Assembly (NCBI GenBank): GCA_020429915.1 | Contig: JAGQKV010000002.1 | Span: forward strand, 405,874 to 469,873 | Direction: 5' to 3' | From: Candidatus Omnitrophota bacterium | GTDB lineage: Bacteria; Omnitrophota; Gorgyraeia; Zapsychrales; Zapsychraceae | DNA length: 64,000 nt | Shown: positions 8,248 to 50,349 of the stretch, piece after piece | Layout: every line of letters starts with the position of its first letter | How positions within the stretch are numbered: position 1 is the stretch's first letter | Notes under the pieces: model-generated | The model's input: only the letters and a program-made list of their open reading frames with translations | What the model was told of the DNA's origin: nothing | Database searches by the model: none | Position numbers and translations under genes: made by a program

Positions 8248-8364
8248 TGTGTTCTCTTTTGATTAAGCGGACAGCGAATTTGTCAGAAGATGGTGTATGC
8301 TAACACATTTGGTAGGCAAATTCAAAGCGTAATCCACGGACGGAATCGGCCGGGGGATCCGGGA

Positions 8365-30255: not shown

Positions 30256-30284
30256 TTGCACCCGGACATCCAGCTCACTATGAT
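30256..30284 (+). promoter_or_regulatory. predicted sigma70-type promoter (TTGCAC-17-TATGAT) for radical SAM operon
   Basis: TTGCAC 30256-30261, TATGAT 30279-30284; argues ORF-track ATG at 30256 is not the start. Confidence 0.4.
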
Positions 30285-30327
30285 GCATATAGAAATCAAC
30301 TTCAACTTGCCCTGCCCGATTGTACCT

Positions 30328-31848
30328 ATGAATGTTGCCATACTGAATCCCTCCTTCGGGGATGACTTTGTGCGCGTCGCCCGCTGGGCGGCCAAGTCAA
30401 GAGGCCGCGTCCAGCGCCATCCGGAATATCTCCTGACCGCCGCGCAAGTCCTGCTGGATCAAGGTCATGATACCCTATTCGTGGAGGCGGCCGCGCGCAA
30501 CCTCACACCCGAAGAGGCCTTCAAAATCTGCGAAGACCATCGCCCGGGATTACTCATTATTCATGCCACGACCCCGTCAATCTATAACGACATTGAACAA
30601 GCCAAGGAAATCAAGCTCAGAACGGGCTGCCGGGTATGCTTTGTCGGACAGCACGCCTCGGCCGAGGCGGAAAACACCTTCGAGATAGGCCGTAACGTCG
30701 TGGACTTTATCGCCCGCGGCGAATACGATCACACCGTCCGCGATTTGGCTGACGGCGTGGATCCCGGCAAGATTCTCGGATTGACCTGGTGGGATTCCGA
30801 ATCCTTGCAGGCGGTCAAAAATCCCGACCGTCCGCCCGTCGACGTAAATGAGCTCCCCTTCCCCGCCTGGCAATTGATCGAACCGGAGTGGTATCCGGAC
30901 GGCGGGAAAAAATTCCCCTTCCTGACACTGATTACCGGCCGCGGCTGTAACAATGGCTGCACATTCTGCCGCGACCCGCAAATTATGTACGGCTACCGGC
31001 TTCGCAACCGCACAGCCAAGAGTGTCGTCGATGAAATGGAATACGATTTGAAGATCCACCCGCAAGTCCGCGAAATCATGTTTGAGACCGATACATTCGC
31101 CGCCGATACCCAGCACGTGAAGGAAGTCTGCGAGGAAATTATGAAACGCGGACTCCACAAACGCATATCCTGGTCCTGCAATATGCGCGTGAATACCGAT
31201 TTGGAAGTCCTCCCTTTGATGCGTGAGTCCGGGTGCCGGATGCTAATGACGGGATTCGAATTCGGATATGACGACGGCCTGAAAGCGATCAATAAAGGCG
31301 GAGTGTCGGTGGATATGGCCCGTGACTATGCCCATGAGGCCAATCGGCTGGGATTCACCATTCACGGGTGCTTCATGATCGGCGCCCCCGGGGAAACACG
31401 GGAAACGGCACAGCAAACCATCGATTTTGCCAAGAGCCTGCCGCTGGACACGGTCCAGATCACCGGCGTGGCCTCCTACCCGGGCACCTCTCTTTACAAA
31501 TGGGCGAAAGAAAATGAATTCTTGCGTGCGGACGACTGGCGGGAATGGTTGAACGCTCAAAAGGAACAGCGGACACTGCTCAGCTATCCGCAATTCAGCA
31601 GCGAAGAAATCGACGAGTATATCGACCGCGGCCTCAAAGAATTCTATCTGCGCCCGAAGCAGATGTGGAAAATGCTGATCTCGATCCGAAGCATGGGAGA
31701 CCTGCTTCGAAAACTGCATGGATTTAAAGCATTTATGGACTATTTCTTCAAGAAAATCCGCTCTGCATTCGGAAGCACTCCACCCCCCACCGGGCCGGAC
31801 AAGCGGGTTGAGGAGGAACTCAGGACCGGTGAAACGGTCGCACTGTAG
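30328..31848 (+). CDS. B12-binding domain radical SAM protein (class B rSAM, methyltransferase/cyclase-like)
   Basis: N-terminal B12-binding-like domain (MNVAILNPSFGDD), CNNGCTFC CX3CX2C motif; start moved to ATG 30328 downstream of predicted promoter. Confidence 0.7.
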   Translation: MNVAILNPSFGDDFVRVARWAAKSRGRVQRHPEYLLTAAQVLLDQGHDTLFVEAAARNLTPEEAFKICEDHRPGLLIIHATTPSIYNDIEQAKEIKLRTGCRVCFVGQHASAEAENTFEIGRNVVDFIARGEYDHTVRDLADGVDPGKILGLTWWDSESLQAVKNPDRPPVDVNELPFPAWQLIEPEWYPDGGKKFPFLTLITGRGCNNGCTFCRDPQIMYGYRLRNRTAKSVVDEMEYDLKIHPQVREIMFETDTFAADTQHVKEVCEEIMKRGLHKRISWSCNMRVNTDLEVLPLMRESGCRMLMTGFEFGYDDGLKAINKGGVSVDMARDYAHEANRLGFTIHGCFMIGAPGETRETAQQTIDFAKSLPLDTVQITGVASYPGTSLYKWAKENEFLRADDWREWLNAQKEQRTLLSYPQFSSEEIDEYIDRGLKEFYLRPKQMWKMLISIRSMGDLLRKLHGFKAFMDYFFKKIRSAFGSTPPPTGPDKRVEEELRTGETVAL

Positions 31849-31927
31849 GCCGGCGCCTTTAAGTTGACAATCCAAGCTTATTCCGATATATTCAAGATAC
31901 AAATAACCAGCATGAATGGAGGTCGAG

Positions 31928-32206
31928 ATGACTCACGTTGTAACCGAACCTTGTGTTAAATGCAAATATACCGACTGTGTAACCGTCTGCCCGGTCGATT
32001 GCTTTCATGAAGACGAGGAAATGCTCGTCATAGACCCCGAAGTTTGCATCGACTGCGGGGCCTGCATTCCGGAATGTCCTGTTCAGGCCATCTACACGGA
32101 AGAAGATGTTCCCGATCAATGGAAGAGCTACATTGAGTTGAATTCCTCAAAGGCTCCGGATCTACCGGTGATTACCGAAAAGAAAGAGCCGCTCGCCGAT
32201 AGCTGA
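31928..32206 (+). CDS. fdxA: 7Fe ferredoxin (FdxA-type, [3Fe-4S][4Fe-4S])
   Basis: [26 protein letters not shown]...[12 protein letters not shown]; GGAGG RBS 5 nt upstream of ATG 31928. Confidence 0.85.
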
Positions 32207-32306: not shown

Positions 32307-32669
32307 ATGGCTGGCTACGACCACGACAAGAACATTCCGAATCTTCCTGAGAAAATCACTGAAAAGAAAAAGAAACCGAAAATGGTTGCTGTCGTGGATG
32401 AGGATAATTGCACCGGTTGCCAAGCCTGCGTGCCTTTTTGTCCGGTCGACTGCATCGCACCTGTTCCTGACGGAAAATACGAAACGATTATTCCGCCAGT
32501 TCAAATCCGGTTTAACGAATGTACCGGCTGTTCCATCTGCGCCCGCGTATGCACCAAAATGACCTGGGACGCGATTGAGATGTTGCCGACCGCCACATTT
32601 GAAGAAGTTTACCAGATCGAACTCAGCGACGCCACCACTCCTCCCTACGGCACACCGAAGCCGAACTAG
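32307..32669 (+). CDS. 4Fe-4S dicluster ferredoxin
   Basis: CTGCQACVPFCP and CTGCSICARVC motifs; GGGAGG RBS before ATG 32307. Confidence 0.75.
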   Translation: MAGYDHDKNIPNLPEKITEKKKKPKMVAVVDEDNCTGCQACVPFCPVDCIAPVPDGKYETIIPPVQIRFNECTGCSICARVCTKMTWDAIEMLPTATFEEVYQIELSDATTPPYGTPKPN

Positions 32670-32704
32670 ATAGTTGATTCAGCGCCCAGCGGAGCTCCCC
32701 GTAC

Positions 32705-33190
32705 ATGTGGTTTTTTATGATTACCTGCTATGTCATGAGCGCCGTGACATTTGTCTTACTCAGCATAGCCTTTCTGCAAAGCTTTCTCAAATTTCACGTC
32801 TGGCAGGCAGACCACGTCACCTTCATGATTCTGACCAGCATCGTCTATTCGTTCACCGAAACTCTGGTCATTTTTTTCTTTGTCGGCACCGGCGTCAGCG
32901 TAAAAGAATATACACTTGAACATCACCTCGATAGCGGTTATCATAAGCGATCCATCGGAGTCAAACGGGAGGTGTATCCTCCGCTGATGATGAACATTTT
33001 GTATATGATTGTCCTGTTTGTCCTTGTGGGAGCAGTCGACACGCAGCGGGTACCGGCGTGGATTTATTACAGCCTATTTGTCTTCTGCATCGGCGACTAC
33101 CTCCGGGTGAAGATCATCCAGAACAACTGCTTTCGCAAAAACACGCAGATCATACTGGATATGTCCGGCATCAAAAAAAAGGTGGCCTGA
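32705..33190 (+). CDS. hypothetical membrane protein (4 TM)
   Basis: 161 aa hydrophobic ORF; ends in ATGA overlap with next ORF. Confidence 0.4.
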   Translation: MWFFMITCYVMSAVTFVLLSIAFLQSFLKFHVWQADHVTFMILTSIVYSFTETLVIFFFVGTGVSVKEYTLEHHLDSGYHKRSIGVKREVYPPLMMNILYMIVLFVLVGAVDTQRVPAWIYYSLFVFCIGDYLRVKIIQNNCFRKNTQIILDMSGIKKKVA

Positions 33191-33351
33191 TGTATTACGT
33201 GGCCAAGATGCTCCAAGCGGCGGCTTTATCGATCATATTGATCGACTTCCTGCGGAACTTTCCGGAACTGATGAGCCGGACGGTCCTGGTCGTCTGCATC
33301 GCCTTATTTACCTGCGGCTGGATTATTAACCGTTACTTCGTCCGACAATGA
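33190..33351 (+). CDS. small membrane protein, 53 aa (not in ORF track)
   Basis: MYYVAKMLQAAALSIILIDFLRNFPELMSRTVLVVCIALFTCGWIINRYFVRQ; ATGA coupling on both ends. Confidence 0.35.
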   Translation: MYYVAKMLQAAALSIILIDFLRNFPELMSRTVLVVCIALFTCGWIINRYFVRQ

Positions 33352-33488
33352 GCAAAAACAAAGATGTTTTAAAATTCGATTCCGGAGCCGACGGATTTAA
33401 ATTCATGATCTATGTGTTGGCCGTCAGCGCCGTCGTTACTTTGATTCTCGGCGGATATTTTCTGTATACCAATTTTTGTCGACCATGA
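33348..33488 (+). CDS. small membrane protein, 46 aa (not in ORF track)
   Basis: MSKNKDVLKFDSGADGFKFMIYVLAVSAVVTLILGGYFLYTNFCRP; ATGA overlaps at both ends. Confidence 0.35.
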   Translation: MSKNKDVLKFDSGADGFKFMIYVLAVSAVVTLILGGYFLYTNFCRP

Positions 33489-33829
33489 GCCTTCCCCCCT
33501 TTGTCAAAAGATTGATGACCAAGTGGAAAATTAATTCCCTATGGGACTTTTTCGCCATCATGCTGGTTTTCTCACTAGCCGGCATGAGCATCGTATATGT
33601 CCGCCGACCGGTGTTTCATCTGGTCGGTATCACCAAAGAGACCCCCTTCATTTTGAAGTTCTTCTGCTGGCTGCTGGTCGTCTTTCCGTCCTATCAGCTG
33701 GGGCTGCTGGTTTTCGGCTTTTTGCTGGGACAATGGAATTTTTTCTGGGCGAAGGAAAAGCAGATGTTTTCCGCCATCTCTCGGTTGGGCCGGTCGTCGG
33801 CGAGCACCGGCGATAACAAGGCGGCTTAG
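33485..33829 (+). CDS. hypothetical membrane protein (3 TM)
   Basis: ATG 33485 preferred over TTG 33476; hydrophobic 114 aa. Confidence 0.4.
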   Translation: MSLPPFVKRLMTKWKINSLWDFFAIMLVFSLAGMSIVYVRRPVFHLVGITKETPFILKFFCWLLVVFPSYQLGLLVFGFLLGQWNFFWAKEKQMFSAISRLGRSSASTGDNKAA

Positions 33830-34239
33830 AATACGTAGAGCATCAGGTAGATAACAACACCCGTCACCGACACATACATCCACACCGGAAACAGCCAGCG
33901 TGTAATCTTGACATGCCGCGCGAAATCCCCTTTTAGCGCGAAATAAACCGCCGCCAGGATAAAAGGAACCATCAGGGCCGCCAGCGGCGTATGCGTCAGC
34001 AATATGGCGAAATATACCATGCGGATGAAGCCTTCTTCCGCATATTTGGTGGATCCGTGAAGATAATGATACGTCAGGTAAGAAATAAGGAACAAGCCGG
34101 ACGCCGTCAGGGCGGCGATCATGGCCTTCTTATGGGTCTGCTGATCCCCCTTCTTGATGGCGGTATATCCCCACCAGAGGAAAATACCGGCCAAAAAGTT
34201 GAGTGTGGCATTGATCGTCGGAAACACCGGGATACCCAT
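33826..34239 (-). CDS. DUF420 membrane protein (CtaM-like heme-copper oxidase assembly factor)
   Basis: 137 aa, 4 TM, DUF420-like sequence; adjacent to sco/ctaB/ctaA/cox genes. Confidence 0.6.
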   Translation of the reverse strand: MGIPVFPTINATLNFLAGIFLWWGYTAIKKGDQQTHKKAMIAALTASGLFLISYLTYHYLHGSTKYAEEGFIRMVYFAILLTHTPLAALMVPFILAAVYFALKGDFARHVKITRWLFPVWMYVSVTGVVIYLMLYVF

Positions 34240-34835
34240 CAGAACCGCTCCTTTAACAAAGCCGATGCATCCAGGAATAACTGATTCACCTCGGCGGTCA
34301 CCGTTCCGTCGTAGTAGCCGCGGATATACCCGCTGCGATCCACCAACGCCAGCGTGGGACTGAAGGCCCCGGTCGCATCCAGATCGAGACGCAACTGCCG
34401 CTGGACAAATTCATCCACCTCCTCGCGTCTTCCCCCGACAAAAAACCAATTCCCCTTCCCCTGCACATAGCGCCCGGAGAATTCAGACAGTACCTGAGGC
34501 GTATCGCGTACGGGACTGAGTGTCACCGCCACCAGCTTAACAGCGGTCACCTGCTCAAAGGTCCGGCTCAAAGAGGCCATATTCTTCATCATGGCGTTAC
34601 ATCCGTTCACACACGGGGTTGAGAATGCGCCGGCAATCCAAACGTTCCGGTACAGGTCCTGCGCAGCCAGCTTTTTGTTCTGTGCATCCGTGAAGGTGAA
34701 CGGCTTCACCTGTCCCAAGACAGGCAGACGCGGTCGCTGCAGGGACGACTGGAAAATATAGACACCACAAATAACGGCCAGTGCGACGGATAAAGCAACG
34801 CCTGCCATGACAAGATTTTTGCGGGAAGCGGCCAT
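34239..34835 (-). CDS. SCO1/SenC-like thioredoxin-fold protein (copper delivery to CuA)
   Basis: N-terminal TM anchor, CxxxC (CVNGC) in thioredoxin-like fold; context. Confidence 0.55.
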   Translation of the reverse strand: MAASRKNLVMAGVALSVALAVICGVYIFQSSLQRPRLPVLGQVKPFTFTDAQNKKLAAQDLYRNVWIAGAFSTPCVNGCNAMMKNMASLSRTFEQVTAVKLVAVTLSPVRDTPQVLSEFSGRYVQGKGNWFFVGGRREEVDEFVQRQLRLDLDATGAFSPTLALVDRSGYIRGYYDGTVTAEVNQLFLDASALLKERF

Positions 34836-34838
34836 GAT

Positions 34839-35690
34839 TTAAAAGCGCGCGTCGACGATAATCAGGGTTAACAAAATGGGGAGATAAATTACCGTTGCCT
34901 TCAGCAGACGGCGGGCATCGAGCAGGGATTCTGAGCGGATGAATTGAAGACTCACACACAGCATCCACAGTCCCGTGACAAAAGCGCCCAGAAGATAAAT
35001 GAATCCGGATAGTCCGGTCACAGCCGGGATCAATGACACCGGGATCAATAGTATCGAGTAACACTGGATTTGGTGGAACAAATCCCAGCCGTCATGTTCG
35101 CGACCGGGCAGCATCTTGAAACCGGCATTACGATAGTCCTCACGAAACATCCAGGCAATTGCATAAAAATGCGGATGCTGCCAAATGAAAAGGATCAAAA
35201 AAAGTATCCCGGCATCGAAATTCAGATGTCCCGTCGCGGCAGCCCATCCGCCTAACGGTGGCATGGCGCCGGGAAACGCACCGATAGTCGTATTCCACCA
35301 ACTGACTTTTTTCATCGGCGTGTAAACCAACACATACATAAAATTGGTCAACAGCCCCAGAAATGCGGTCAGAATGTTCAACTTCGTGTACAGCACGAAG
35401 ATTCCCAAAAGACTGATGAGGATGCCGAACTGCAAGGCGCGGCGGGGTTCGATGCGTCCGGCGGGCAAAGGCCGTTTGCGCGTGCGGTTCATTAAATTGT
35501 CGGTATCGCGTTCCAGATAGTGATTCAGTACGGCTGAACCACCACAGACCAAACTTGTTCCCAACAGCAAGTAAAACAGGCGCACATAGGAATGGATCCC
35601 CTGCCCGCCCAAATAGTAGCCGATGGTAGCGGTAATTAATACCAACAGAACGATGCGCGGCTTGGTCAATTCAAAATAATCACGCATCAT
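34839..35690 (-). CDS. ctaB: protoheme IX farnesyltransferase (heme O synthase)
   Basis: 283 aa UbiA-family; MMRDYFELTKPRIVLLV N-terminus. Confidence 0.85.
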   Translation of the reverse strand: MMRDYFELTKPRIVLLVLITATIGYYLGGQGIHSYVRLFYLLLGTSLVCGGSAVLNHYLERDTDNLMNRTRKRPLPAGRIEPRRALQFGILISLLGIFVLYTKLNILTAFLGLLTNFMYVLVYTPMKKVSWWNTTIGAFPGAMPPLGGWAAATGHLNFDAGILFLILFIWQHPHFYAIAWMFREDYRNAGFKMLPGREHDGWDLFHQIQCYSILLIPVSLIPAVTGLSGFIYLLGAFVTGLWMLCVSLQFIRSESLLDARRLLKATVIYLPILLTLIIVDARF

Positions 35691-36745
35691 ATCGAATGCC
35701 CCTTCATAAATACTGACATTCGCAACGGAGCGATGCGCAACAGCAGCAGAAAGGTGAGTCCCAATAAGGCAGCTCCGGTCACCACATGCAAACTGGTCGT
35801 GAGCGGTCCTTTCCCGGTTAGCACTGTGGCGATACCCAGGAAAACCTGCGTCGCGATAACTGCGTCAATCCCGAACACGATACGCAAAACAGAGTCCTTT
35901 TGCGGCAACCGGCAACGCAGAGCGAACATGTTGACGACTCCCGCAATGATCACCAGAATGACGGCCCAGAAACGGTGCGCCAAGTGATATAACACATTTG
36001 CCCGTGCGATCGGATCGAGGCCATGCTCAAAACGCCAGTCGTTGACGCGCGCCAAGAACTGATCGTTCACCGTCGGCCACCACTGCCCGGCCATGGTTGG
36101 AAAATCGTAAACCGCCAGCCCTGATCCGGTATGCCGCATGACCGCCCCCAGAATGAGCTGGACGTAAATGCCGGCCAACATGAGGATCGCGGCCGCCTGC
36201 AGACGCCCGTCTCGTGCCTCCGGCAACTCCTGACGACGGCGACGCTCCACAGACTGGGAATAAGCCAGGAAGATTGTCATTAAAAAAAATGTTTGCGCCA
36301 AAACGCCGTGTGCCACGGATACCGGTGTCGGAAGATAAAAAAGCACCGTAATGCCTCCCAGAACCCCCTGCAAAATCACGGCGCCGAGCGCGCAAAAGCC
36401 AACGACCTTTATCCACTTGCGGACTTCCGCAAAAGCCAGCCAAATAGCCAGGCACAGCGTTAAGGCGCCGACGCATGTGGCAATCATCCGATGGCCATGT
36501 TCATAGAATACGCCGCCGACCATCGGCGGGAAAAGCGTACCGTAAGAAAGCGGCCAATCAGGGACGGATAATCCGGATCCGGTCGACGTCACCATGCCCC
36601 CGGCAAAAATCAGAAACAGCGTGGCGGTAACGGTGAGCTTGGTATAACGGCGTAACCAGGGATTATCTTGAGAATCGGCTCGCGAGAGGTCCCGGGAACC
36701 GGGACGGCCGGTACTAGTTCCAGAAGTCGTCATATTCCTCTGCAC
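35687..36745 (-). CDS. ctaA: heme A synthase (COX15/CtaA family)
   Basis: 352 aa polytopic protein with conserved His pairs; overlaps coxB 3' end (start may be ATG 36733). Confidence 0.7.
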   Translation of the reverse strand: MQRNMTTSGTSTGRPGSRDLSRADSQDNPWLRRYTKLTVTATLFLIFAGGMVTSTGSGLSVPDWPLSYGTLFPPMVGGVFYEHGHRMIATCVGALTLCLAIWLAFAEVRKWIKVVGFCALGAVILQGVLGGITVLFYLPTPVSVAHGVLAQTFFLMTIFLAYSQSVERRRRQELPEARDGRLQAAAILMLAGIYVQLILGAVMRHTGSGLAVYDFPTMAGQWWPTVNDQFLARVNDWRFEHGLDPIARANVLYHLAHRFWAVILVIIAGVVNMFALRCRLPQKDSVLRIVFGIDAVIATQVFLGIATVLTGKGPLTTSLHVVTGAALLGLTFLLLLRIAPLRMSVFMKGHSI

Positions 36746-37499
36746 CCTCCTCCCCGATCACAGGGGCATTGCGCGCCACCCACGCGTCATACTCTTCCTG
36801 ATGGTGCACGACTAGGTTGCCGCGCATCCGGTAATGGCCAATTCCGCACAGCTGGGCACAGCCGATTTCAGACGTACCGGATTTGGTGGGTGTAAACCAG
36901 GTCGGAATAACCAGGCCGGGGATGGCATCCTGCTTCACGCGCATGATCGGCAGCGCGAAACTGTGGATTACATCCTTAGAAGTGAGGTAGATGATGGCCG
37001 GTTTGCCGATGGGAAGATGTAACTGGTTGATGGTGGTAAAATCATCCTTACCGTTAGGGTCATCGGGATCAAGACCCAGCGGGTTGGTCTGTGTGTCGAC
37101 CAGCTCGGGACGAGCACTTCCGAATAAACCGTCTGCACCGGGATAATGCACGTTCCAGGCAAACTGCTCTGCCACCACACGGACTTCCACAATATCCTTG
37201 CGGTCGGGAAAGGCATTGACCTGCTTCGCCCAAAACGGGATCGAGAATCCGATCAGTAGCAGGGCCTCGGCCACGACGACTCCGGCCTCGATGTAGCTGG
37301 AGACATGGGATTTCACGCCGCGGTAATTGGCCTTGGGATTCACCCATTTGTTGAAGCGTCCGATACAGATCACAAAAAAGATCCCCCAACCGATAAACAG
37401 GCCGACCATCAGCAGATGGACGAGGATAATCACCATGTCGATGTCGTGCCCGTGCGAAGAGGCAACTATGGGAAGATTGAGCATTTCGGATAAATTCAT
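36714..37499 (-). CDS. coxB: cytochrome c oxidase subunit II (CuA; no fused cytochrome c domain)
   Basis: CuA ligands H...CAQLCGIGHYRM; two N-terminal TM helices; 261 aa, no CxxCH. Confidence 0.9.
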   Translation of the reverse strand: MNLSEMLNLPIVASSHGHDIDMVIILVHLLMVGLFIGWGIFFVICIGRFNKWVNPKANYRGVKSHVSSYIEAGVVVAEALLLIGFSIPFWAKQVNAFPDRKDIVEVRVVAEQFAWNVHYPGADGLFGSARPELVDTQTNPLGLDPDDPNGKDDFTTINQLHLPIGKPAIIYLTSKDVIHSFALPIMRVKQDAIPGLVIPTWFTPTKSGTSEIGCAQLCGIGHYRMRGNLVVHHQEEYDAWVARNAPVIGEEGAEEYDDFWN

Positions 37500-37723
37500 A
37501 ACTCTCCTGTCGACAATCGCGCGCGCTTCTTAAACCTTATTAAGAATGTAACGAACACCGCCATGATCACCAATAAAACCGCCAGCAACGTTAGCACTCC
37601 CCACCGCAGACCACGGTTGGCCGGGGTATCGGTGTCGCCATAGAAACAAATGCTGCACGCCAGAGCTGCGCGCGGAATGGCGGCCAGTATGAACAGATTA
37701 ATCATTATGATCACGCGCACCAT
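37496..37723 (-). CDS. small membrane protein associated with oxidase operon (75 aa)
   Basis: 4-nt overlap with coxB; one TM plus CSIC motif. Confidence 0.35.
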   Translation of the reverse strand: MVRVIIMINLFILAAIPRAALACSICFYGDTDTPANRGLRWGVLTLLAVLLVIMAVFVTFLIRFKKRARLSTGEL

Positions 37724-37724
37724 G

Positions 37725-37919
37725 TCAGTCCTTTACTTTCTTAGCAAACATAATCCCGTAAACAATAAAACCCACGCCGACCAGAAGCGAGCCGATCATG
37801 CTCCACAGATAACTGGGAGAAGCGGTGAGTTGATACTGTTGATAAGCCCAGTAAGCGAAAAACCCCGAAAGAGATACCGTAGCCATAACAAACAGAATAT
37901 GAAAACCGCGCAGGCTCAA
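37725..37919 (-). CDS. small membrane protein associated with oxidase operon (64 aa, 2 TM)
   Basis: overlaps coxD stop by 4 nt. Confidence 0.35.
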   Translation of the reverse strand: MSLRGFHILFVMATVSLSGFFAYWAYQQYQLTASPSYLWSMIGSLLVGVGFIVYGIMFAKKVKD

Positions 37920-38323
37920 TGATGCCCTCCCGACGCCTCCGGAGCCTCCGGCGTTTCCGTATGCGAACCATGTGTTCCGCCGTGCGCACCCGCCTTTTCA
38001 ACATAGTACTCGAAATTGAGGTTCTTGGTCCCATCCGGCACGTCGTGAACCGTATAAACGATGAAAATCATCATAAACAAGAACATAAATGCGGTAAGGC
38101 TCATCACCAGATAAATCAATTTCTTTTCATGGCTCAAATGCATGAAGAACGAGGCCACCAGAGACGCCTTGGTGGTCGCCACGAACAACGCCAAAAAAAT
38201 AGCCAAAGCGATACCGATCTTCAGGCTGCTGATCGCGACGGTGATGACGGTCAGTACGGCCAAGGTGCCGAAGACTTTGTAATACAGGGCCTGCTCTTTT
38301 TTAAAATCGGTTGTTTCTGCCAT
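37916..38323 (-). CDS. coxD: cytochrome c oxidase subunit IV (bacterial CoxD family)
   Basis: MAETTDFKKEQALYYKVF...; ORF-track start overextended, ATG at 38323 chosen. Confidence 0.6.
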   Translation of the reverse strand: MAETTDFKKEQALYYKVFGTLAVLTVITVAISSLKIGIALAIFLALFVATTKASLVASFFMHLSHEKKLIYLVMSLTAFMFLFMMIFIVYTVHDVPDGTKNLNFEYYVEKAGAHGGTHGSHTETPEAPEASGGHH

Positions 38324-38333
38324 ATGAGTTATC

Positions 38334-38930
38334 CTATAAAAGGTAAAGAACGGGAAAGAGGAATATCCATACGAGGTCAACAAAGTGCCAGTACAACCCC
38401 ACCACCTCGATTCGATTGGTGAACCGTTGCGGCTGAGTTTTCCACATCTTGGTTCCCACCGGGAGCCAGAAATACATCAACACTATCGCCCCGCCCACGA
38501 TATGCAGGGCGTGTAATCCGGTGAGCGTGTAATAGATGGCAAAGTACGCGCTCTCCTTGGGAAATATACCGTGAGAGAATTTGGTGCCGTATTCGATCGC
38601 TTTAATAATCATGAAGATCAAGCTGCACAATAACGTCAAACCGAGGGTAAGCTTAAACTTCGGGATGTTTTTTTCTTTCAGAGCCACCCAGGCCAAAACC
38701 ATCGATACACTCGACGAAATCAGGACCAATGTGTTCACTGTGCCTAGCGGCACGTTGAGCAAATCGGAACCGTGCGGCCACGCCGGGGATCCGGTGCGCA
38801 GCAGGACATAGCCTGAAAAAAGCCCTCCGAACAGCATGACTTCGGAAGCCAGAAAAAGCCAAATACCGAATTTCGCATTGTAAAGTCCTGTATCCGGTCG
38901 CGCTTCGACTGTGTACGGAATCATCTCCAT
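38334..38930 (-). CDS. coxC: cytochrome c oxidase subunit III
   Basis: 198 aa, 5 TM, COX3 family. Confidence 0.85.
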   Translation of the reverse strand: MEMIPYTVEARPDTGLYNAKFGIWLFLASEVMLFGGLFSGYVLLRTGSPAWPHGSDLLNVPLGTVNTLVLISSSVSMVLAWVALKEKNIPKFKLTLGLTLLCSLIFMIIKAIEYGTKFSHGIFPKESAYFAIYYTLTGLHALHIVGGAIVLMYFWLPVGTKMWKTQPQRFTNRIEVVGLYWHFVDLVWIFLFPVLYLL

Positions 38931-40693
38931 CAGGCGGCCTCCTTCTGTGCCGGGGCCTCTTCCATTTCGACCTCAGGTTCGTACTGCGGACTGAAGTCTC
39001 TCTTGGCGCCGGGAACACTATATTCGTAAGCCGCACGATACACCACCGGCTCGGTAACGAAATTACCGTGTCCCGGTGGACTCGGAGTGTTCCATTCCAG
39101 AGTGGTCGCTTCCCACGGATTATCCGATTCGACTTTCTTGCCCTTGAACATACTCCAGAAAAAATTAAAGATAAACGGAAGTTGCGCCAGCCCGAGCCCC
39201 CAGGCCGCCCACGAGGACGTGATGTTCAGATGCAAAACGTCCTGGGCATGTTCATAGCCGGCACCGCCATCGTACAACCGACGCGAAACACCTGCCAACC
39301 CGACGATAAACATCGGCATGAAAATGAAGTTCATACAGACCAGGGACGGCCAGAAATGAAGCTGCCCCAAAAGCTCGTTCATCTTGCGTCCGGTCGCCTT
39401 CGGATACCAATGATAAATCCCCGCAAACAGCGCGAAAATGGTACCCGGGGCAACGACGTAGTGGAAATGACCGATGACATAGTAGGTGTCGTGCAAGTGG
39501 ATATCCGCCGTCGAAAGGCCCAAAGGCAAACCGGTCAGGCCGCCGATCCCGAACATCGGCAAGAACGCCAGGGCAAAGAGCATCCGGGTATTAAACCGGA
39601 TCGATCCTCCCCACAGAGAGATAAACAATGCCGTCAGGATGATGATCGACGGTATGGAGATGATCATTGTGGTCGCCTGGAAAAAAGCGTTGATGACAGT
39701 CCCCATCCCCGTCAGGAACATATGATGCGCCCACACGACAAATGACATGAATCCCAAAAAAACAATCGAATACACCATGGACTTATAGCCCCAAAGCGGC
39801 TTGCGGATATTGTTGGCTATGACTTCCGAAACGATCCCCATCGCCGGTAATATCAACACATACACCTCCGGGTGTGCTAAAAACCAGAACAAGTGCTGCC
39901 ACAGCAACACGCTTCCCCCGCCGCTGATGTCGAGCTGTTGACCGCTGACCACCAATCCCGACGGCATAAAGAAGCTGGTACCCGCGACCCGGTCCATCAA
40001 TTGCATGACGCCGGCCGCCAGCAGCGGCGGAAAGGCCAATACAAGCAGGAATGACGTGACCAGCTGCGCCCACACGAAGAACGGCAGCCGCATGAATGTC
40101 AGCCCTTTGGCACGTAACTGAAAAATCGTGACAATGATGTTAATGGAACCCAACAAAGACGATTGGATCAGACAAACCATACCGATAATCCAAAAGGTCT
40201 GTCCCACGGATGCTATAACGGCTAACGGAGCATAAGCCGTCCAGCCGGATGAGGCGGCTCCCCCCGGAAGGAAGAAACTGCCGAGCATGATGATCCCGCC
40301 CGCGAAATACAGCCAGTAACTGGTCATATTTAAGCGCGGAAAGGCCATATCCGGCGCCCCGACCTGAAGCGGAACCACAAAATTTCCAAAGGCGCCGACC
40401 GCCAGCGGAACAATCCCCAGAAAGACCATAATGGTTCCGTGCATGGCGCCAAGTTCGTTGTAAAACTCCGGGAGCATGACACCGCCGGGCATCCGGGAAT
40501 CACCGAACAGATGGCCTATGAGCGGCAGAGGCTGCTCGGGATAGGCTAATTGCCAGCGCATAAGCATAATGAGTCCGAAACCGAACAACAAGAAGAACAA
40601 CGCGGTGATCCCATACTGGATACCGATGACTTTGTGGTCTACCGAAAAAATGTATTTGCGCCAAAACGGCAGTTCGTGATGTGATTCGCTCAT
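38930..40693 (-). CDS. coxA: cytochrome c oxidase subunit I (heme-copper oxidase catalytic subunit)
   Basis: 587 aa, 12+ TM, conserved His ligands (GHPEVY, HHMF). Confidence 0.95.
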   Translation of the reverse strand: MSESHHELPFWRKYIFSVDHKVIGIQYGITALFFLLFGFGLIMLMRWQLAYPEQPLPLIGHLFGDSRMPGGVMLPEFYNELGAMHGTIMVFLGIVPLAVGAFGNFVVPLQVGAPDMAFPRLNMTSYWLYFAGGIIMLGSFFLPGGAASSGWTAYAPLAVIASVGQTFWIIGMVCLIQSSLLGSINIIVTIFQLRAKGLTFMRLPFFVWAQLVTSFLLVLAFPPLLAAGVMQLMDRVAGTSFFMPSGLVVSGQQLDISGGGSVLLWQHLFWFLAHPEVYVLILPAMGIVSEVIANNIRKPLWGYKSMVYSIVFLGFMSFVVWAHHMFLTGMGTVINAFFQATTMIISIPSIIILTALFISLWGGSIRFNTRMLFALAFLPMFGIGGLTGLPLGLSTADIHLHDTYYVIGHFHYVVAPGTIFALFAGIYHWYPKATGRKMNELLGQLHFWPSLVCMNFIFMPMFIVGLAGVSRRLYDGGAGYEHAQDVLHLNITSSWAAWGLGLAQLPFIFNFFWSMFKGKKVESDNPWEATTLEWNTPSPPGHGNFVTEPVVYRAAYEYSVPGAKRDFSPQYEPEVEMEEAPAQKEAA

Positions 40694-40702
40694 ACTAATC
40701 CC

Positions 40703-41419
40703 TTACTTTCCATCCGGTCGTTGAAATGTAAAATCTACCTCCTTGGTCTCCCCTTCGCCCAAGGTGACGGTCACCTGCTGCGGAGCCAAGCGCTGGTGCC
40801 AGGCCTCCAGCACGTATTGGCCCGGCGGCAGATTGTCGATCGTGTAGGTACCGGTTTCGTCGGTCGTCGTGTAAAACGGATGACTCATAACCGTGATATA
40901 CGCACTCATCCACGGGTGGACGTCACATTTGACCTCAAACATGAACTCCGGCTTATCAAAGGTTTTGGTAATTTCTGTGCGGAACTTGGGCATGGCGACG
41001 TTAAACTCGGCATTTTTCTTCGGCAAGGCATGCACATTGTGCAACGTTCCGTCCGGATTCAGGATTTTCAACGGCTGCCCGGCCATGACGCCCATTACGG
41101 CGGGCGTGTAAATACATCCGTGCTGGTTTAACACCTTGGGCTCCTTGGGCACGGGGAAATTGGATTTGGGAAGCCCGTCCTTGACTTGCAAAAAGACATT
41201 CTTAAGCTCATTGTTGGGCCCCAGAATGATCGTTTTGGGAAATACCGTGTCGGTATGCTTGGTAAGACATACGGGATCCGCCCCCATTTTGATGGGCCGG
41301 AGTTTCGGTCGTCGTCCTTGATAGGTCACTTTACCTTTGATCGCGGCCGCCTGCGCCGGCATGGGAAAAGCAAGAATGGCAGCGAGAAACGAGGCTAGTG
41401 TTACGTAGTATATATTCAT
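40703..41419 (-). CDS. secreted beta-sandwich protein with carboxypeptidase-regulatory-like domain signatures and a putative type-1 copper motif (C-x2-H-x2-M)
   Basis: Signal peptide; IKGKVTYQG and TDETGTYTIDNLPPGQYVLEAWH β-sandwich signatures; HNVH...CDVHPWM resembles amicyanin CTPHPFM. Confidence 0.35.
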   Translation of the reverse strand: MNIYYVTLASFLAAILAFPMPAQAAAIKGKVTYQGRRPKLRPIKMGADPVCLTKHTDTVFPKTIILGPNNELKNVFLQVKDGLPKSNFPVPKEPKVLNQHGCIYTPAVMGVMAGQPLKILNPDGTLHNVHALPKKNAEFNVAMPKFRTEITKTFDKPEFMFEVKCDVHPWMSAYITVMSHPFYTTTDETGTYTIDNLPPGQYVLEAWHQRLAPQQVTVTLGEGETKEVDFTFQRPDGK

Positions 41420-41546: not shown

Positions 41547-44309
41547 TTATTTGAACTGCAACGGGGGAGATTCCTCCGCCGGGTAGGGCTGGTATCCGGT
41601 GTAGGGCTCCGGATAGGGATAGCGCGGATAGTGCGTTCGATGGTCCAGACGCTTTGCCTGCTCCACCAGCCGGATAAACTCCGCCCGGAGGCCTTCCAGA
41701 TCGCTGCCGCGGGTACGGCTCGCCCGTTCCAGGACCTGATCATAACTGGCATGGCCTTTAAATCGGGAGTTACGCAGCAACAGACCGAATTCGGCTACGG
41801 CACTGGCAAAGGCCGCTTCAGGGTCCATGTAGTCGGTGACGTCACCGCGCTTGAATGTTTGGCGAATCAGACGGCTGTGATTGGATTTGACCGGTTTATA
41901 GCGCAGCTTGACCGTCATCAGCTCCTGATTCACAAACATACGCGGCTTCTGGTATTTCAAACGGTCAACACCCTGCTCGGCGTACGGAACCGGCTCCACA
42001 CCGTAGGCTGGGACAACTTCATACAAAGCGGTGACCGTATGGCCGGCCCCGATTTCTCCGGCGTCGACCCGGTCATTATTGAAATCACGATTGTTCATAA
42101 CCCTGTTTTCGTACCCAATCAACCGGTAGGCATGCACGTGCTGCGGATTGAACTCGACCTGGATCTTGACGTCCTTGGCGATCGTAAAGAGCGTGGATCC
42201 CAGTTCACTGACCAGGATCTTCCGCCCTTCTTCAAGAGAATCGATGTAATAGTAGTTCCCGTTGCCGTTGTCGGCGATCTTCTCCATTTTGGCGTCTTTG
42301 TAATTACCGGAGCCGAAACCGAGAATTGACAGGAACACCCCCTCCCTGCGTTTGCTTTCGATCAATTGGACCAACTCGTAATCATTCTTCATACCGACGT
42401 TAAAATCTCCGTCCGTGGCCAGAATGACGCGATTGTTGCCGTTGCGGATGTAGTTATCGCGGGCGATGCGATAAGCCAGATTCAGCCCCGCCTCACCGGC
42501 TGTCGAACCGCCCGCCTGCAGATTGTCAATCGCGGCATGAATCCGGTGTTTGTACGTGCCGGGTGTTGAATCCAGCACCAACCGGGCTGAGCCGGAGTAG
42601 GTTACAATGGCCACCTGTTGGTCCGGACGCAATTGGTCCACCATGAGTTTCAACGATTGCTTGAGCAGCGGCAATTTGTTCGACCGTTTCATCGAACCGG
42701 AAACGTCGATCAAAAACACCAGATTGCTCGGAGGAATCTTCCGCTGCGACGGCACGTTCCCTTTAAGACCGACCTGGACGAGCAGGTGTCGGGTATTCCA
42801 AGGACAAACGGATCCGCGCATAGTCACACTAAACGGTTCCCCGCGGGTCGGCTTGGGATAATTATAGTCAAAGTAGTTGACCATTTCCTCCACCCGGACG
42901 GCATCGGCCGGCGGCAGCTGCCCGCGATCCAGAAAACGGCGCACGTTGCTGTAGGACGCCGTATCGACGTCGATCGAGAAGGTTGATAGCGGCGCGCTGG
43001 ATGCGACCAGGAACGGATTTTCATAGATCGGATCGTACTCTTCGGTATTCTGCTCCGGCGGACGATGATAGTAAGTCGGCGGCGTGTAATCGGGTTCGGG
43101 GGGCGGTGCGGGATAAAAGAGTTCATCCGCATCATCGCCGTAACCCATATCATAGCCGCGACGAACCTGCTCTTCGGCTTCATAAATCGGCTCTTCCGCA
43201 TCGTAGGGATACGGTCGGCGCGCCCTGGATTTGGTGGGAAGGTTATATACCTCCTCCTTCATGATCATCCCTTGGGCCATTACGGCTTCCGACCCACCGA
43301 TGATTTGGCCGTTGTCGACCTCGATCCGCTTGAATCCGGCGAAGGCCCGGTCTTTGCGAGGTTCTTCCGTGATGCTTTTGGCGACGGCGCTCCGGTCTTT
43401 CGACTCCAGCATATCGCGATAAGCACCGGGGGCCGTTTGTGAACGACTGCCGGAGATCTGCGCCGGTATTTTGTTCCCATCGGCATCAGAGTAGTCCCCC
43501 AACCCACGTATCTTCTCGGCACCTGTATAAGTGGAGGCTTGAAATCCACCTATACTCCGCGCCGGGCTGGTCGATGTCTCATCAGCCTTTTTGTCATTCA
43601 TCACGATCGGTTGCCCCGTATAAGCTGAACTTTGGAAACCGCCATGCCCGACCGCCTTCTGTTTTTCCCGAACCGCCGGTGACGGCTGAGACTGCCGGGC
43701 ATCATCCAACCGGTCGGCTGCGTCGATTTCCTGGTAGGAAGCTGCCAGGTCATACTGATTATCAGCGAGGGGTGCTTGAGCCTGAGGCGTCGATTCCCCT
43801 TCAGGCTTACCCGCTTTTCGTTGGGAAAATTCTGACCGCCTCATTCCGGGAGCGTCTTCACCGGCTTTCTGCATGACATTCCGACGCTCCTCCTCCAAAT
43901 AGTAAGGTTCGTATGTCTTGGGACGGTAAATTTGTGATTTTGAGGCGTAGTCGTTACGTGCCTCCTGTGAAAACGTCCGCAAATAGACTATTCCTACGAT
44001 CATGCACAGCGCGAATGTCACCAGCGCGCCTCCGCCGACCTTCAACCAGGTGTCGCCTTTCATAGTGGGTCCCTCCTGGAGCTTCTCATCTAGAAGCGTC
44101 TTTTGAATCTCATTGGCCATATCGGCCGAGACTTCCTCATCCTTCCATTCCTGCAACGTTCCCGACAATTTTTGCAATTCCTTGTAATATTCCTGCCATT
44201 GAGTGTCGTTAAGGATAAGGTCTTCCACTTCATGCCGTTCCGTGTCCGAAACGGCTCCGTCAATATATGATGAGATAAGCTCTTTAATTTTTTCGTAATC
44301 TTTATTCAT
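41547..44309 (-). CDS. membrane anti-sigma factor fused to periplasmic low-complexity linker and vWA (YfbK-like) domain
   Basis: N-terminal anti-sigma region, single TM (WLKVGGGALVTFALCMIVGIVYL), vWA MIDAS-like FLIDVSGSM; 8-nt overlap with ECF sigma gene. Confidence 0.65.
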   Translation of the reverse strand: MNKDYEKIKELISSYIDGAVSDTERHEVEDLILNDTQWQEYYKELQKLSGTLQEWKDEEVSADMANEIQKTLLDEKLQEGPTMKGDTWLKVGGGALVTFALCMIVGIVYLRTFSQEARNDYASKSQIYRPKTYEPYYLEEERRNVMQKAGEDAPGMRRSEFSQRKAGKPEGESTPQAQAPLADNQYDLAASYQEIDAADRLDDARQSQPSPAVREKQKAVGHGGFQSSAYTGQPIVMNDKKADETSTSPARSIGGFQASTYTGAEKIRGLGDYSDADGNKIPAQISGSRSQTAPGAYRDMLESKDRSAVAKSITEEPRKDRAFAGFKRIEVDNGQIIGGSEAVMAQGMIMKEEVYNLPTKSRARRPYPYDAEEPIYEAEEQVRRGYDMGYGDDADELFYPAPPPEPDYTPPTYYHRPPEQNTEEYDPIYENPFLVASSAPLSTFSIDVDTASYSNVRRFLDRGQLPPADAVRVEEMVNYFDYNYPKPTRGEPFSVTMRGSVCPWNTRHLLVQVGLKGNVPSQRKIPPSNLVFLIDVSGSMKRSNKLPLLKQSLKLMVDQLRPDQQVAIVTYSGSARLVLDSTPGTYKHRIHAAIDNLQAGGSTAGEAGLNLAYRIARDNYIRNGNNRVILATDGDFNVGMKNDYELVQLIESKRREGVFLSILGFGSGNYKDAKMEKIADNGNGNYYYIDSLEEGRKILVSELGSTLFTIAKDVKIQVEFNPQHVHAYRLIGYENRVMNNRDFNNDRVDAGEIGAGHTVTALYEVVPAYGVEPVPYAEQGVDRLKYQKPRMFVNQELMTVKLRYKPVKSNHSRLIRQTFKRGDVTDYMDPEAAFASAVAEFGLLLRNSRFKGHASYDQVLERASRTRGSDLEGLRAEFIRLVEQAKRLDHRTHYPRYPYPEPYTGYQPYPAEESPPLQFK

Positions 44310-44883
44310 GATGCCCCTCCTGAATATAAGAAGCCAGCTCGGTGCGGAGCCGTTCTCGCCCGCGGAAGATCAACTGCTTCACATTGGCCAGGGAACAATT
44401 CAGGATCTTGGCTATTTCGTCGTATGAAAACCGATGATACTCCCGCAGGACGATCGCCTCTCTTTGCTGGTACGGCAACCGCAGGATGGCCTCCTGAACG
44501 TGCCGGGCCCGTTCCTTTTTCTGCAGCAGCTCGGCCGAGGAGTCGGCGTGGTCCGGGACATCCCATTGTTCATCCACCGATTTGTCCCTATTGGTGAAGG
44601 TCAGCGAAAAAAGCCGTTTGGATTTGCGCAATTTGTCGATACAGCGGTTGCGCGCGATGGTGAAGAGCCAAGTCGAAAACTTCGCGTTCGTCTGATAACG
44701 GTAGCTGCTCCCGATGAGGGAGACAAATACATCGTGGGTGGCATCCTCGGCGTCGGCCCGGTTGCCCAGCATCCGCAGACAAAAGTTGAGTATCCGATTC
44801 TTGTAGCGATGGAATATCATGGTGATGGCCTCGCGATTTCCCTGCTGGAAATCGTGCATGATGTCTTCGTCCGTCTGATCCAT
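44302..44883 (-). CDS. ECF-type RNA polymerase sigma-70 factor
   Basis: 193 aa sigma70 region 2/4. Confidence 0.85.
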   Translation of the reverse strand: MDQTDEDIMHDFQQGNREAITMIFHRYKNRILNFCLRMLGNRADAEDATHDVFVSLIGSSYRYQTNAKFSTWLFTIARNRCIDKLRKSKRLFSLTFTNRDKSVDEQWDVPDHADSSAELLQKKERARHVQEAILRLPYQQREAIVLREYHRFSYDEIAKILNCSLANVKQLIFRGRERLRTELASYIQEGHHE

Positions 44884-49174: not shown

Positions 49175-49188
49175 TGTTTCACCGATTC

Positions 49189-50307: not shown

Positions 50308-50349
50308 TCTGACTCGATTCTGTACAGATTAGTGCTGTCCGAGACCGGC

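Follow-up and report, generated by a model that had tools for sequence, protein, structure and literature searches.

Among the described systems closest to the locus reported here, CcoG is a protein with two [4Fe-4S] clusters, encoded in ccoGHIS by the cbb3 oxidase genes together with very small membrane partners; it is a cupric reductase required for full oxidase activity, and its physiological donor is described as unknown (PMC7558416). CrpH, a heme-containing PepSY_TM protein, supports heme-copper oxidase function and shows a genetic overlap with CcoG (PMC13038864). For mitochondria, a passage of PMC12808453 that cites Barros et al. 2001 states that ferredoxin is needed with Cox15 for the hydroxylation of heme O. 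Here, we describe a gene module in a stretch of DNA of 64,000 nucleotides (nt) from a Candidatus Omnitrophota bacterium (assembly GCA_020429915.1, contig JAGQKV010000002.1, positions 405,874–469,873), which is called the window throughout. The module contains four genes for small membrane proteins (g1 to g4) together with ferredoxin genes upstream of them, and converges on a cluster of genes for an A1-type cytochrome c oxidase (cox). It would encode a ferredoxin-fed small membrane complex that supports cofactor maturation of this oxidase, a tentative reading to which we assign a probability of roughly 0.4.

To our knowledge, it has not been established what donates electrons to bacterial heme A synthase under physiological conditions, and no module that links ferredoxin to the assembly of aa3-type oxidases or to their electron input is known to us. 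None was found in the literature searched, and the module is not described in the literature found for DUF6787 (the family of g4), for ferredoxin in COX operons or for Omnitrophota oxidases.

Four genes for small membrane proteins

The membrane part of the module consists of four open reading frames (ORFs), with lengths in amino acids (aa):

32705–33190, plus strand: g1, 161 aa
33190–33351, plus strand: g2, 53 aa
33348–33488, plus strand: g3, 46 aa
33485–33829, plus strand: g4, 114 aa

All four are present in the sequence at the positions given by the initial annotation, and all are hydrophobic, as it had stated (grand average of hydropathy 0.57–1.00). It had also placed the block correctly, between radical-SAM (S-adenosylmethionine) and ferredoxin genes on one side and convergent oxidase-assembly genes on the other. 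A Kyte–Doolittle scan and AlphaFold models give about four, two, one and two transmembrane (TM) helices for g1, g2, g3 and g4, respectively.

The genes overlap at every junction. An ATGA start/stop overlap of 4 nt is found between g2 and g3 (33348–33351) and between g3 and g4 (33485–33488), so that the ATGA pattern first reported for all junctions holds for two of the three; the g1/g2 junction is a TGATG (cTGATGt) with an overlap of 1 nt, in which the stop codon occupies 33188–33190 and the start codon 33190–33192. Such overlaps had been read as a strong sign of a co-translated unit by themselves, an argument that we drop: ATGA overlaps are common in prokaryotes, and they are not kept as such in the orthologous loci, where most junctions range from −4 to +14 nt. 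Taken together, the overlaps of 1, 4 and 4 nt and the tight orthologous junctions would nevertheless place the block in the class of translationally coupled operons. A Shine–Dalgarno sequence (AGGTGG, 33180–33185) lies 4 nt ahead of the g2 start, and GGAG at 32691–32694, 10 nt ahead of g1, is a possible Shine–Dalgarno site. None could be read from the sequence at the starts of g3 and g4, which would fit termination–reinitiation. Since g3 combines an ATGA overlap with the lack of such a site, its translation probably depends on coupling.

Two of the genes had been noted as missing from the mechanical ORF list. This is a mere effect of the length threshold. The list contains g2 as a 97-aa ORF with a GTG start (33058–33351) and g4 as a 117-aa ORF with a TTG start (33476–33829); the N-termini of orthologues back the ATG starts at 33190 and 33485. 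A metagenome gene finder called all four genes on the identical contig in ENA.

A tblastn panel of the window proteins served to analyse conservation; it covered 67 loci from species-representative genomes and 80 from metagenomes. The order g1-g2-g3-g4 is identical at 68 loci, and the micro-ORFs have intact orthologues in about 45 genomes at the species level, with lengths of 50–56 aa for g2 and 38–54 aa for g3 throughout. The closest named relative of g1, at 95% identity, belongs to a Candidatus Omnitrophica metagenome-assembled genome. Synonymous sites are saturated in these comparisons, with a proportion of synonymous differences (pS) of about 0.8; uncorrected ratios of nonsynonymous to synonymous differences (pN/pS) were used for this reason in place of NG86 dN/dS, and their medians are 0.23, 0.33, 0.32 and 0.38 for g1, g2, g3 and g4. 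It could be argued that g2 and g3 are chance ORFs or remnants of a larger, frameshifted gene, for they are very short (53 and 46 aa), and g3 and g4 have no Shine–Dalgarno sequence. The conservation data rule this out, and we give the idea practically no weight: lengths and motifs are kept across phyla, including Spirochaetia, where the genes lie on the opposite strand; pN/pS is about 0.3 against a saturated pS; and at many orthologous loci the micro-ORFs are separate, with no overlap between them, which is incompatible with a single frameshifted gene. All four are genuine genes. The proposal that they form a genuine unit, which was to be abandoned if orthologous loci had lost the micro-ORFs or the junctions, is borne out by the conserved order at 68 loci, the tight packing and the low pN/pS; the orthologues are intact and their junctions tight.

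Ferredoxins as part of the unit

Two ferredoxin genes precede g1:

31928–32206, plus strand: fdxA, 7Fe-type ferredoxin, FdxA_Protbact-like, 92 aa (NCBIfam NF045490)
32307–32669, plus strand: fdxB, soluble 2x[4Fe-4S] ferredoxin, 120 aa (Pfam Fer4 families)

The fdxA product matches NF045490 with E = 1e-37 and 128 bits, just under the cutoff of 135 bits, and the gene finder gave the same length of 92 aa on the identical contig; this ferredoxin probably carries electrons for the module. The fdxB gene ends 35 nt ahead of the g1 start. Its product has a conserved basic N-terminal segment (YxHYK..P....KKxKPK) and eight cysteines that are kept in an alignment across five lineages.

Upstream sequence of at least 3 kb is available for 42 Omnitrophota-type loci. 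All 42 carry at least one ferredoxin gene upstream of g1, which is fdxA in 41 and fdxB in 16. The fdxB gene adjoins g1 in Poribacteria, Marinimicrobia, Calditrichaceae, Spirochaetia and the metagenome contig L128, and every other lineage with g2 has a ferredoxin, too. In a six-frame scan with hidden Markov models (HMMs), g2 was matched at 105 of 157 g1 loci and g3 at 90 of them; g2 was never matched at loci without a ferredoxin. Neither g2 nor g3 was found at the 35 g1 loci that have no ferredoxin (mostly Marinimicrobia, beside ychF) or in a distant g1 subfamily. Because g2 occurs only where a ferredoxin is present and the linkage is found in 42 of 42 loci, ferredoxin, g1 and g2 form a single unit in evolution. 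Position 32705, where its start had been drawn originally, is too far downstream; the upstream ferredoxin belongs to the unit in all these Omnitrophota-type loci and in the other lineages with g2. The best explanation is that the four ORFs are the membrane part of the module, and that upstream fdxB, fdxA or both are its soluble part.

The four-helix membrane protein g1

A sequence search returned 418 homologues of g1, and the family comprises 158 representative clusters at 50% identity (E ≤ 0.001), nearly all members being about 160 aa long. Neither the single sequence nor the profile of g1 has a match in Pfam, NCBIfam or the PDB sequences. In the AlphaFold2 model (predicted local distance difference test, pLDDT, of 95), g1 folds into four long helices (residues 2–28, 37–72, 78–112 and 118–154); a Foldseek search of the PDB with this model returned generic helical bundles only (E > 0.3). 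The motifs FFFVGTG..(I/V)KEY, KR.VYPP and GAVDT stand out in the alignments. The positive-inside rule predicts that both termini are inside, and residues 61–91 and 139–154 would therefore form a conserved helical platform on the cytoplasmic side.

The outer ends of TM2 and TM4 carry the polar residues that are conserved family-wide. His37 is kept in 38 of 45 sequences. Position 121 is a histidine in 34 of the 45 and a tyrosine in the window protein and throughout Omnitrophota. Position 112, which belongs to the outer end of TM3 and lies between positions 37 and 121, is an aspartate in the window and a histidine in the consensus of the distant subfamily, and position 132 is a tyrosine in the Omnitrophota clade and a histidine in a few relatives (residues 112–132 correspond to about 33038–33100 of the window). 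The coordinated swap of ligand-type residues at positions 112, 121 and 132 in the whole Omnitrophota clade may go together with a different metal or cofactor.

Several families with comparable architecture were tried and rejected. As a heme A synthase (CtaA/COX15, including compact forms with four TM helices), g1 gives no match to PF02628 and 0.0% against CtaA in hhalign; the likeness is only architectural, i.e. a four-helix bundle with histidines where TM2 and TM4 reach the outer side. A di-heme four-helix cytochrome b (b561/CybB, FdnI) would require four histidine positions, of which the g1 family conserves two (37 and 121, the second being a tyrosine in this clade), and no Pfam match was obtained; FdnI (PDB id: 1kqf_C) matches the g1 model in Foldseek with E = 1.9 only. 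Remote homology to one half of CtaA, DUF420, subunit III/IV, CtaB or the small ORFs of the oxidase cluster scores at most 0.8% in hhalign. Ten longer g1 homologues (207–277 aa) contain no Pfam domain, and some have an additional C-terminal hairpin of two TM helices, which in a check for fusions was not detectably g2.

The small proteins g2, g3 and g4

The g2 protein is a hairpin of two TM helices with conserved K6, P25, F40, G43 and W44. The g3 protein is single-pass and consists of an invariant N-terminal motif KFDxGxxGF (LKFDxGxxGF) followed by one TM helix; Omnitrophota, Poribacteria and Spirochaetia have orthologues of it, those of Spirochaetia being encoded on the opposite strand, and the gene appears to be a frequent member of the module that is absent from some lineages. 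A comparison of the 46- and 53-aa peptides with small-protein families, suggested by the initial annotation, gave no match to either in Pfam or NCBIfam, and their profiles have no match among PDB sequences.

The g4 protein is a member of DUF6787 (PF20584), which it matches with 82.9 bits (E = 2e-23, cutoff 27.5) over profile positions 2–76 of 79, and PF20584 is recognised in all 21 g4 homologues. DUF6787 is a family without assigned function, and the literature search found no paper that mentions it. The motifs of g4 are KW.I...IM..FSLAG...R.P.F and LGQF.FFW. Its AlphaFold2 model (pLDDT 85) has an amphipathic N-terminal helix, two TM helices and a C-terminal amphipathic helix, and matches only generic helical bundles in the PDB (Foldseek, E > 0.3). 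The gene is present at 68 loci, all of Omnitrophota type and all with cox genes where the flanks suffice, and appears to be a lineage-specific addition, not a part of the core.

Linkage to the genes of an A1-type oxidase

In the window, the module converges on the following genes, identified with Pfam and NCBIfam:

33826–41419, minus strand: the A1-type cytochrome c oxidase cluster as a whole
40703–41419, minus strand: cupredoxin-like protein, first in transcription
38930–40693, minus strand: CoxA, with an HPEVY motif
38334–38930, minus strand: CoxC
37916–38383, minus strand: subunit IV
37725–37919, minus strand: sm64, unclassified small ORF of 64 aa
37496–37723, minus strand: sm75, unclassified small ORF of 75 aa
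36714–37499, minus strand: CoxB, with the CuA motif CAQLCGIGHYRM read from the sequence
35687–36745, minus strand: CtaA
34839–35690, minus strand: CtaB
34239–34835, minus strand: SCO1
33826–34239, minus strand: DUF420/CtaM-like protein, last in transcription

Flanks of at least 4 kb on either side are available for 29 Omnitrophota-type loci, and in all 29 the module is convergent on DUF420-SCO1-ctaB-ctaA-cox. Taken alone, this synteny could be phylogenetic inertia. The tie to oxidase genes proposed in the initial annotation does extend beyond Omnitrophota. In Marinimicrobia, fdxB-g1-g2 is followed by two other genes and then by convergent DUF420-SCO1-ctaB-ctaA or cox (L051, L055, L078–L081). 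Between g2 and DUF420, locus L078 (3284–4641) and also L055 encode a phosphatase of the PAP2 family and a membrane protein of 166 aa that belongs to no known class. In Calditrichaceae (L056), the genes coxA-coxC-cox4-sm64-sm75-coxB-fdxB-g1 lie on one strand, and the contig ends after g1. Contig L128 has g1-g2-fdxB-coxA-coxC-cox4-sm75-coxB on one strand, its first four genes being spaced by 2, 62 and 20 nt. Thus, the core module adjoins the same A1-type cox cluster in at least three gene orders, two of which are co-directional with the structural genes. Several look-ups of representative clusters fell on contigs shorter than 2 kb.

The same data could be read in another way, in which g1 to g4 are supernumerary subunits or stabilisers of the oxidase, comparable to subunit IV or CtaF, have no redox role and have the ferredoxins as mere neighbours. 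They are small and hydrophobic, they lie beside the cox string and in two lineages within it, and the cox operon already holds two other unclassified small membrane ORFs. This is nevertheless very unlikely: the module lies on the strand opposite to cox in Omnitrophota and, in two phyla, has no cox genes near it, the g1 family reaches many genomes with unrelated contexts, and the linkage to ferredoxin is stricter than the linkage to cox. Nor do g1 to g4 belong to the known small subunits (COX4_pro, subunit III), since hhalign gives at most 0.3% against cox4, coxC, sm64 and sm75 and there is no Pfam match.

Stand-alone modules and distant relatives

In Poribacteria, the gene order is fdxB-g1-g2-g3. 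In Spirochaetia (L066, chromosome OZ242313, 7175–10370), fdxA-fdxB-g1 lie on one strand and g3-g2 directly downstream on the opposite strand (HMM scores of 47 bits for g3 and 25 bits for g2), an arrangement repeated in L112. Divergent from g2 is a gene for a homologue of FprA/adrenodoxin reductase (M. tuberculosis FprA, PDB id: 1lqt, E = 5e-116), which points to a chain from NADPH through ferredoxin to the membrane. No cox genes are found within 8 kb at this locus.

The distant g1 subfamily, with about 22–27% identity, has named members in Acidobacteria and also occurs in Nitrospinae-like contexts; these contexts show no consistent link to ferredoxin or cox. A cytochrome c, a cupredoxin-like protein and HEM4 are its neighbours in single cases, and the neighbours of this subfamily do not single out a function. 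At three loci, a UbiE-like SAM methyltransferase gene directly follows the g1-like gene (L075, 9001–11580; L162, 6001–8560; L161, 6001–7257), and in two of them a Pyr_redox_2/Pyr_redox_dim flavoprotein comes after the methyltransferase. This recurrence probably falls within one lineage; the flavoprotein may represent a second type of reductase partner for the g1 family.

A further gene has to be considered here:

30280–31848, plus strand: B12-binding radical-SAM gene, HpnJ-like (TIGR03471)

It matches TIGR03471 (the hopanoid-associated HpnJ) with E = 3e-102 and 343 bits, the cutoff being 578, and BchE is the next match at 1e-27; the enzyme is therefore taken as a paralogue. The gene is divergent from an aconitase gene and is co-directional with the ferredoxin genes in 31 of the 42 Omnitrophota-type loci. 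It is absent from the module loci of other phyla, so it is not an obligatory partner.

These observations bear on the possibility that the module is an independent ferredoxin-dependent membrane enzyme that modifies a quinone, a hopanoid-like lipid, heme or another isoprenoid, sometimes together with the radical-SAM enzyme, and that it came to lie beside cox through co-transfer or as part of a respiratory gene island, without a dedicated partnership. Such an enzyme would account for the modules that stand alone in Poribacteria and Spirochaetia, for the frequent HpnJ-like neighbour (31 of 42), for the UbiE-like methyltransferase and flavoprotein reductase that follow the distant homologues, and for the Spirochaetia locus, where FprA, ferredoxins and membrane proteins resemble a three-component monooxygenase/reductase chain. 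On the other hand, the radical-SAM gene is missing in other phyla and in 11 of the 42 Omnitrophota-type loci, three gene orders adjoin cox, two of them in the direction of cox and with gaps of 20–70 nt, and a Pfam scan found no His-box or other known signature of membrane hydroxylases or desaturases. An independent enzyme is thus an unlikely explanation, although one to be taken seriously.

Electron entry as an alternative

The periplasmic side of the system allows for another scheme, in which ferredoxin-g1-g2(-g3), as a minimal transmembrane conduit, passes low-potential electrons of cytoplasmic ferredoxin or NADPH to a periplasmic carrier, either the cupredoxin-like protein at the head of the cox operon or a cytochrome c, and from there to CuA and O2. 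It would be a ferredoxin:oxygen shortcut, respiratory or detoxifying, that bypasses quinone and the bc complex. In L128 and L056, the module is co-directional with structural and not with assembly genes, and the periplasmic face of g1 is where its conserved His, Asp and Tyr are located. Two distant homologues have suitable neighbours: that of L075 lies beside a cytochrome c' and a copy of the window's cupredoxin-like protein with 37% identity (7477–8256, minus strand), and that of L069 directly downstream of a monoheme cytochrome c. These periplasmic-carrier neighbours are single cases, however, and five other contexts on long contigs lack them; in Marinimicrobia L078 and L079, the neighbours are assembly genes only. 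Moreover, g1 has only one conserved pair of potential ligands, which is His/Tyr in Omnitrophota, with no CXXCH and no second heme site across the membrane. We regard electron entry as distinctly unlikely.

Proposed function

The preferred reading, support of cofactor maturation of the A1-type oxidase by a ferredoxin-fed membrane complex, could work as follows. Reduced ferredoxin would dock on the cytoplasmic helical platform of g1; in Spirochaetia, it would probably be reduced by the adjacent FprA-type NADPH:ferredoxin reductase. The g1 bundle would assemble with g2 and g3 (and g4 in Omnitrophota) into a small membrane complex, in which the electrons of ferredoxin would be used at the site formed by the outer ends of TM2, TM3 and TM4 (His37, Asp/His112 and His/Tyr121). 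The client would be the neighbouring A1-type cytochrome c oxidase, and the likeliest task would be to keep a cofactor or carrier reduced during its maturation. This might be copper for SCO1, CuA and CuB, or the step might be the conversion of heme O to heme A by the O2-dependent CtaA. The working mode may be likened to that of CcoG/ccoGHIS, of CrpH, or of Yah1/Arh1 with Cox15. Complex formation, topology, ferredoxin docking, a redox cofactor in g1, the client and the reaction are all inferred, the function from gene context only.

Several observations weigh against this scheme. The conserved ligand-type residues of g1 face outward and the ferredoxin is cytoplasmic, and no second cofactor site that would bridge the membrane was found in g1. 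The tyrosine at position 121 argues against a simple bis-His heme in the Omnitrophota clade. No homology of g1 to g4 to any characterised protein was detectable with Pfam, NCBIfam, PDB, Foldseek or hhalign. About 15 Poribacteria loci and the Spirochaetia loci have no cox or cta gene in flanks of 5–10 kb, so the link to the oxidase is not universal, and loci with ferredoxin and g1 that lack g4 have cox in only 5 of 11 cases with good flanks. The identity of CoxA is 70–85% across phyla with the module, which suggests that the whole region may move horizontally and that the number of independent linkages may be inflated. Finally, g1 genes that occur alone and distant relatives lie beside ychF, a UbiE-like methyltransferase or a Pyr_redox_2 flavoprotein.

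A bolder version would regard ferredoxin-g1-g2-g3 as a new minimal transmembrane redox machine, unrelated to any known family, that takes electrons from ferredoxin or NADPH in the cytoplasm and delivers them on the outer side of the membrane, either as the donor for heme A synthase and copper-centre assembly or as a direct entry from ferredoxin through cupredoxin to the oxidase. We hold it with low confidence and judge it unlikely. If true, it would be the long-missing donor system for bacterial heme A synthase or for the copper centres of aa3 oxidases, or a direct entry into aerobic respiration in lineages usually deemed anaerobic or host-dependent (Omnitrophota, Marinimicrobia and Poribacteria).

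Under any of these maturation or entry schemes, the three families that are absent from Pfam, NCBIfam and PDB, together with DUF6787, are concrete candidates for the supply of reducing power to the oxidase. They would offer a handle on how such power reaches the assembly of aa3 cofactors, or the oxidase itself, in several uncultivated phyla. The question is testable, as the genomic partner is a 2x[4Fe-4S] ferredoxin (with an FprA-type reductase in one lineage) and the client would be the A1-type oxidase cluster. Genes of 46 and 53 aa fall under common ORF-length thresholds, and accessory genes of respiration may be missed or left unlinked in annotation; such a gap would concern Omnitrophota, Marinimicrobia and Poribacteria.

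Other features of the window

Further features flank the module and the oxidase cluster:

31864–31892, plus strand: promoter-like site TTGACA-17-TATATT, just upstream of fdxA
41547–44883, minus strand: intervening region with an extracytoplasmic function (ECF) sigma factor and a 920-aa anti-sigma-like protein (zf-HC2/VWA/YfbK_C)
46238–51144, minus strand: bc-type complex region

The promoter-like site matches the sigma-70-like consensus at 11 of 12 positions, as found by a consensus scan only. A transcript of fdxA-fdxB-g1-g2-g3-g4 that is distinct from that of the radical-SAM gene might start there. At the other end of the module, the stop codon of g4 (TAG, 33827–33829) overlaps that of the convergent DUF420 gene (33826–33828) in the sequence TTAG at 33826–33829. 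As this leaves no intergenic room for terminators, the two transcripts must either overlap each other or terminate within the opposite gene. At other loci, only about 10–60 nt separate the convergent genes.

The genes for subunit IV and CoxB enclose the small membrane ORFs sm64 and sm75, both of which tblastn shows to be conserved at most related loci; they belong to no Pfam or NCBIfam family and may encode extra oxidase subunits. The cupredoxin-like protein (238 aa) is secreted and combines a type-1-copper-like pattern (LHNVH ... CDVHPWM) with a following CarboxypepD_reg Ig-like domain. Pfam recognises the C-terminal domain only, and the N-terminal part matches a blue copper domain (PDB id: 5fc9) with E = 0.47 only. 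Its gene heads or accompanies the cox/cta cluster at 37 loci across phyla, and its product is probably the periplasmic electron donor of the window oxidase. Upstream of the oxidase cluster, the bc-type complex is encoded by split N- and C-terminal parts of cytochrome b and by a 978-aa multiheme cytochrome c. With this complex and the oxidase cluster, the window therefore appears to hold a respiratory island. Scans of the window for Rfam families and tRNAs returned nothing.

Comparison with known systems

None of CcoG, CrpH and mitochondrial ferredoxin is detectably homologous to the proteins of the module, and of the family memberships tested, only that of g4 in DUF6787 was confirmed.

The fdxB product aligns to the 2x[4Fe-4S] region in the C-terminal part of RnfB (TIGR01944, E = 3e-13, 49.8 bits against a cutoff of 68.7; RsxB models, 1e-11 to 5e-12), and like RnfB it is proposed to be an iron–sulfur protein at the cytoplasmic face of a membrane complex. 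It is not RnfB: besides scoring under the cutoff, it covers only positions 98–169 of the model and has neither the N-terminal TM helix nor the FeS domain rich in cysteines. Genes for RnfA, C, D, E or G are not found near fdxB in the window.

DUF420/CtaM proteins are, like those of the module, small helical membrane proteins encoded with SCO1, ctaA and ctaB, and DUF420 is the immediate convergent neighbour of g4. They are different families, with the g1 profile scoring less than 1% against the DUF420 profile in hhalign. With CrpH, STEAP and Fre, g1 would share the movement of cytoplasmic electrons to a site at the outer face of the membrane; unlike them, it is a 161-aa four-helix bundle without a Pfam match, and one of its candidate ligands is a tyrosine.

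The Yah1/Arh1–Cox15 system resembles the chain proposed here, which would run from NADPH through an adrenodoxin-reductase-type flavoprotein and ferredoxin to a membrane step of heme a formation. The Spirochaetia locus has its FprA homologue by fdxA, fdxB, g1, g2 and g3, and the Omnitrophota module faces ctaA and ctaB. The ferredoxins differ, with [2Fe-2S] in Yah1 and [4Fe-4S] or 7Fe types here, and there is no ctaA within 8 kb of the Spirochaetia locus. We know of no membrane adaptor for Yah1 and Cox15.

The likeness to CcoG/ccoGHIS concerns the whole arrangement. In both cases, a cytoplasmic part with two [4Fe-4S] clusters goes with a small membrane domain and tiny single-pass partners (CcoS has about 50 aa, and CcoH has one TM helix), and oxidase structural genes adjoin. 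In the module, however, the iron–sulfur protein is a separate soluble polypeptide, the partner oxidase is of the A1-type aa3 and not the cbb3 kind, and the window cluster has no Cu-ATPase gene and no periplasmic Ig-like domain. Membership in ccoGHIS is rejected by the family models: fdxB scores 18.2 bits against Fer4_18, where the cutoff is 27, and g1 to g4 have no match to FixG_C, FixS or FixH at E ≤ 1. By analogy with these systems, the module would be of a known kind, a ferredoxin- or iron–sulfur-linked membrane accessory of a heme-copper oxidase, built here from component families without a characterised relative.

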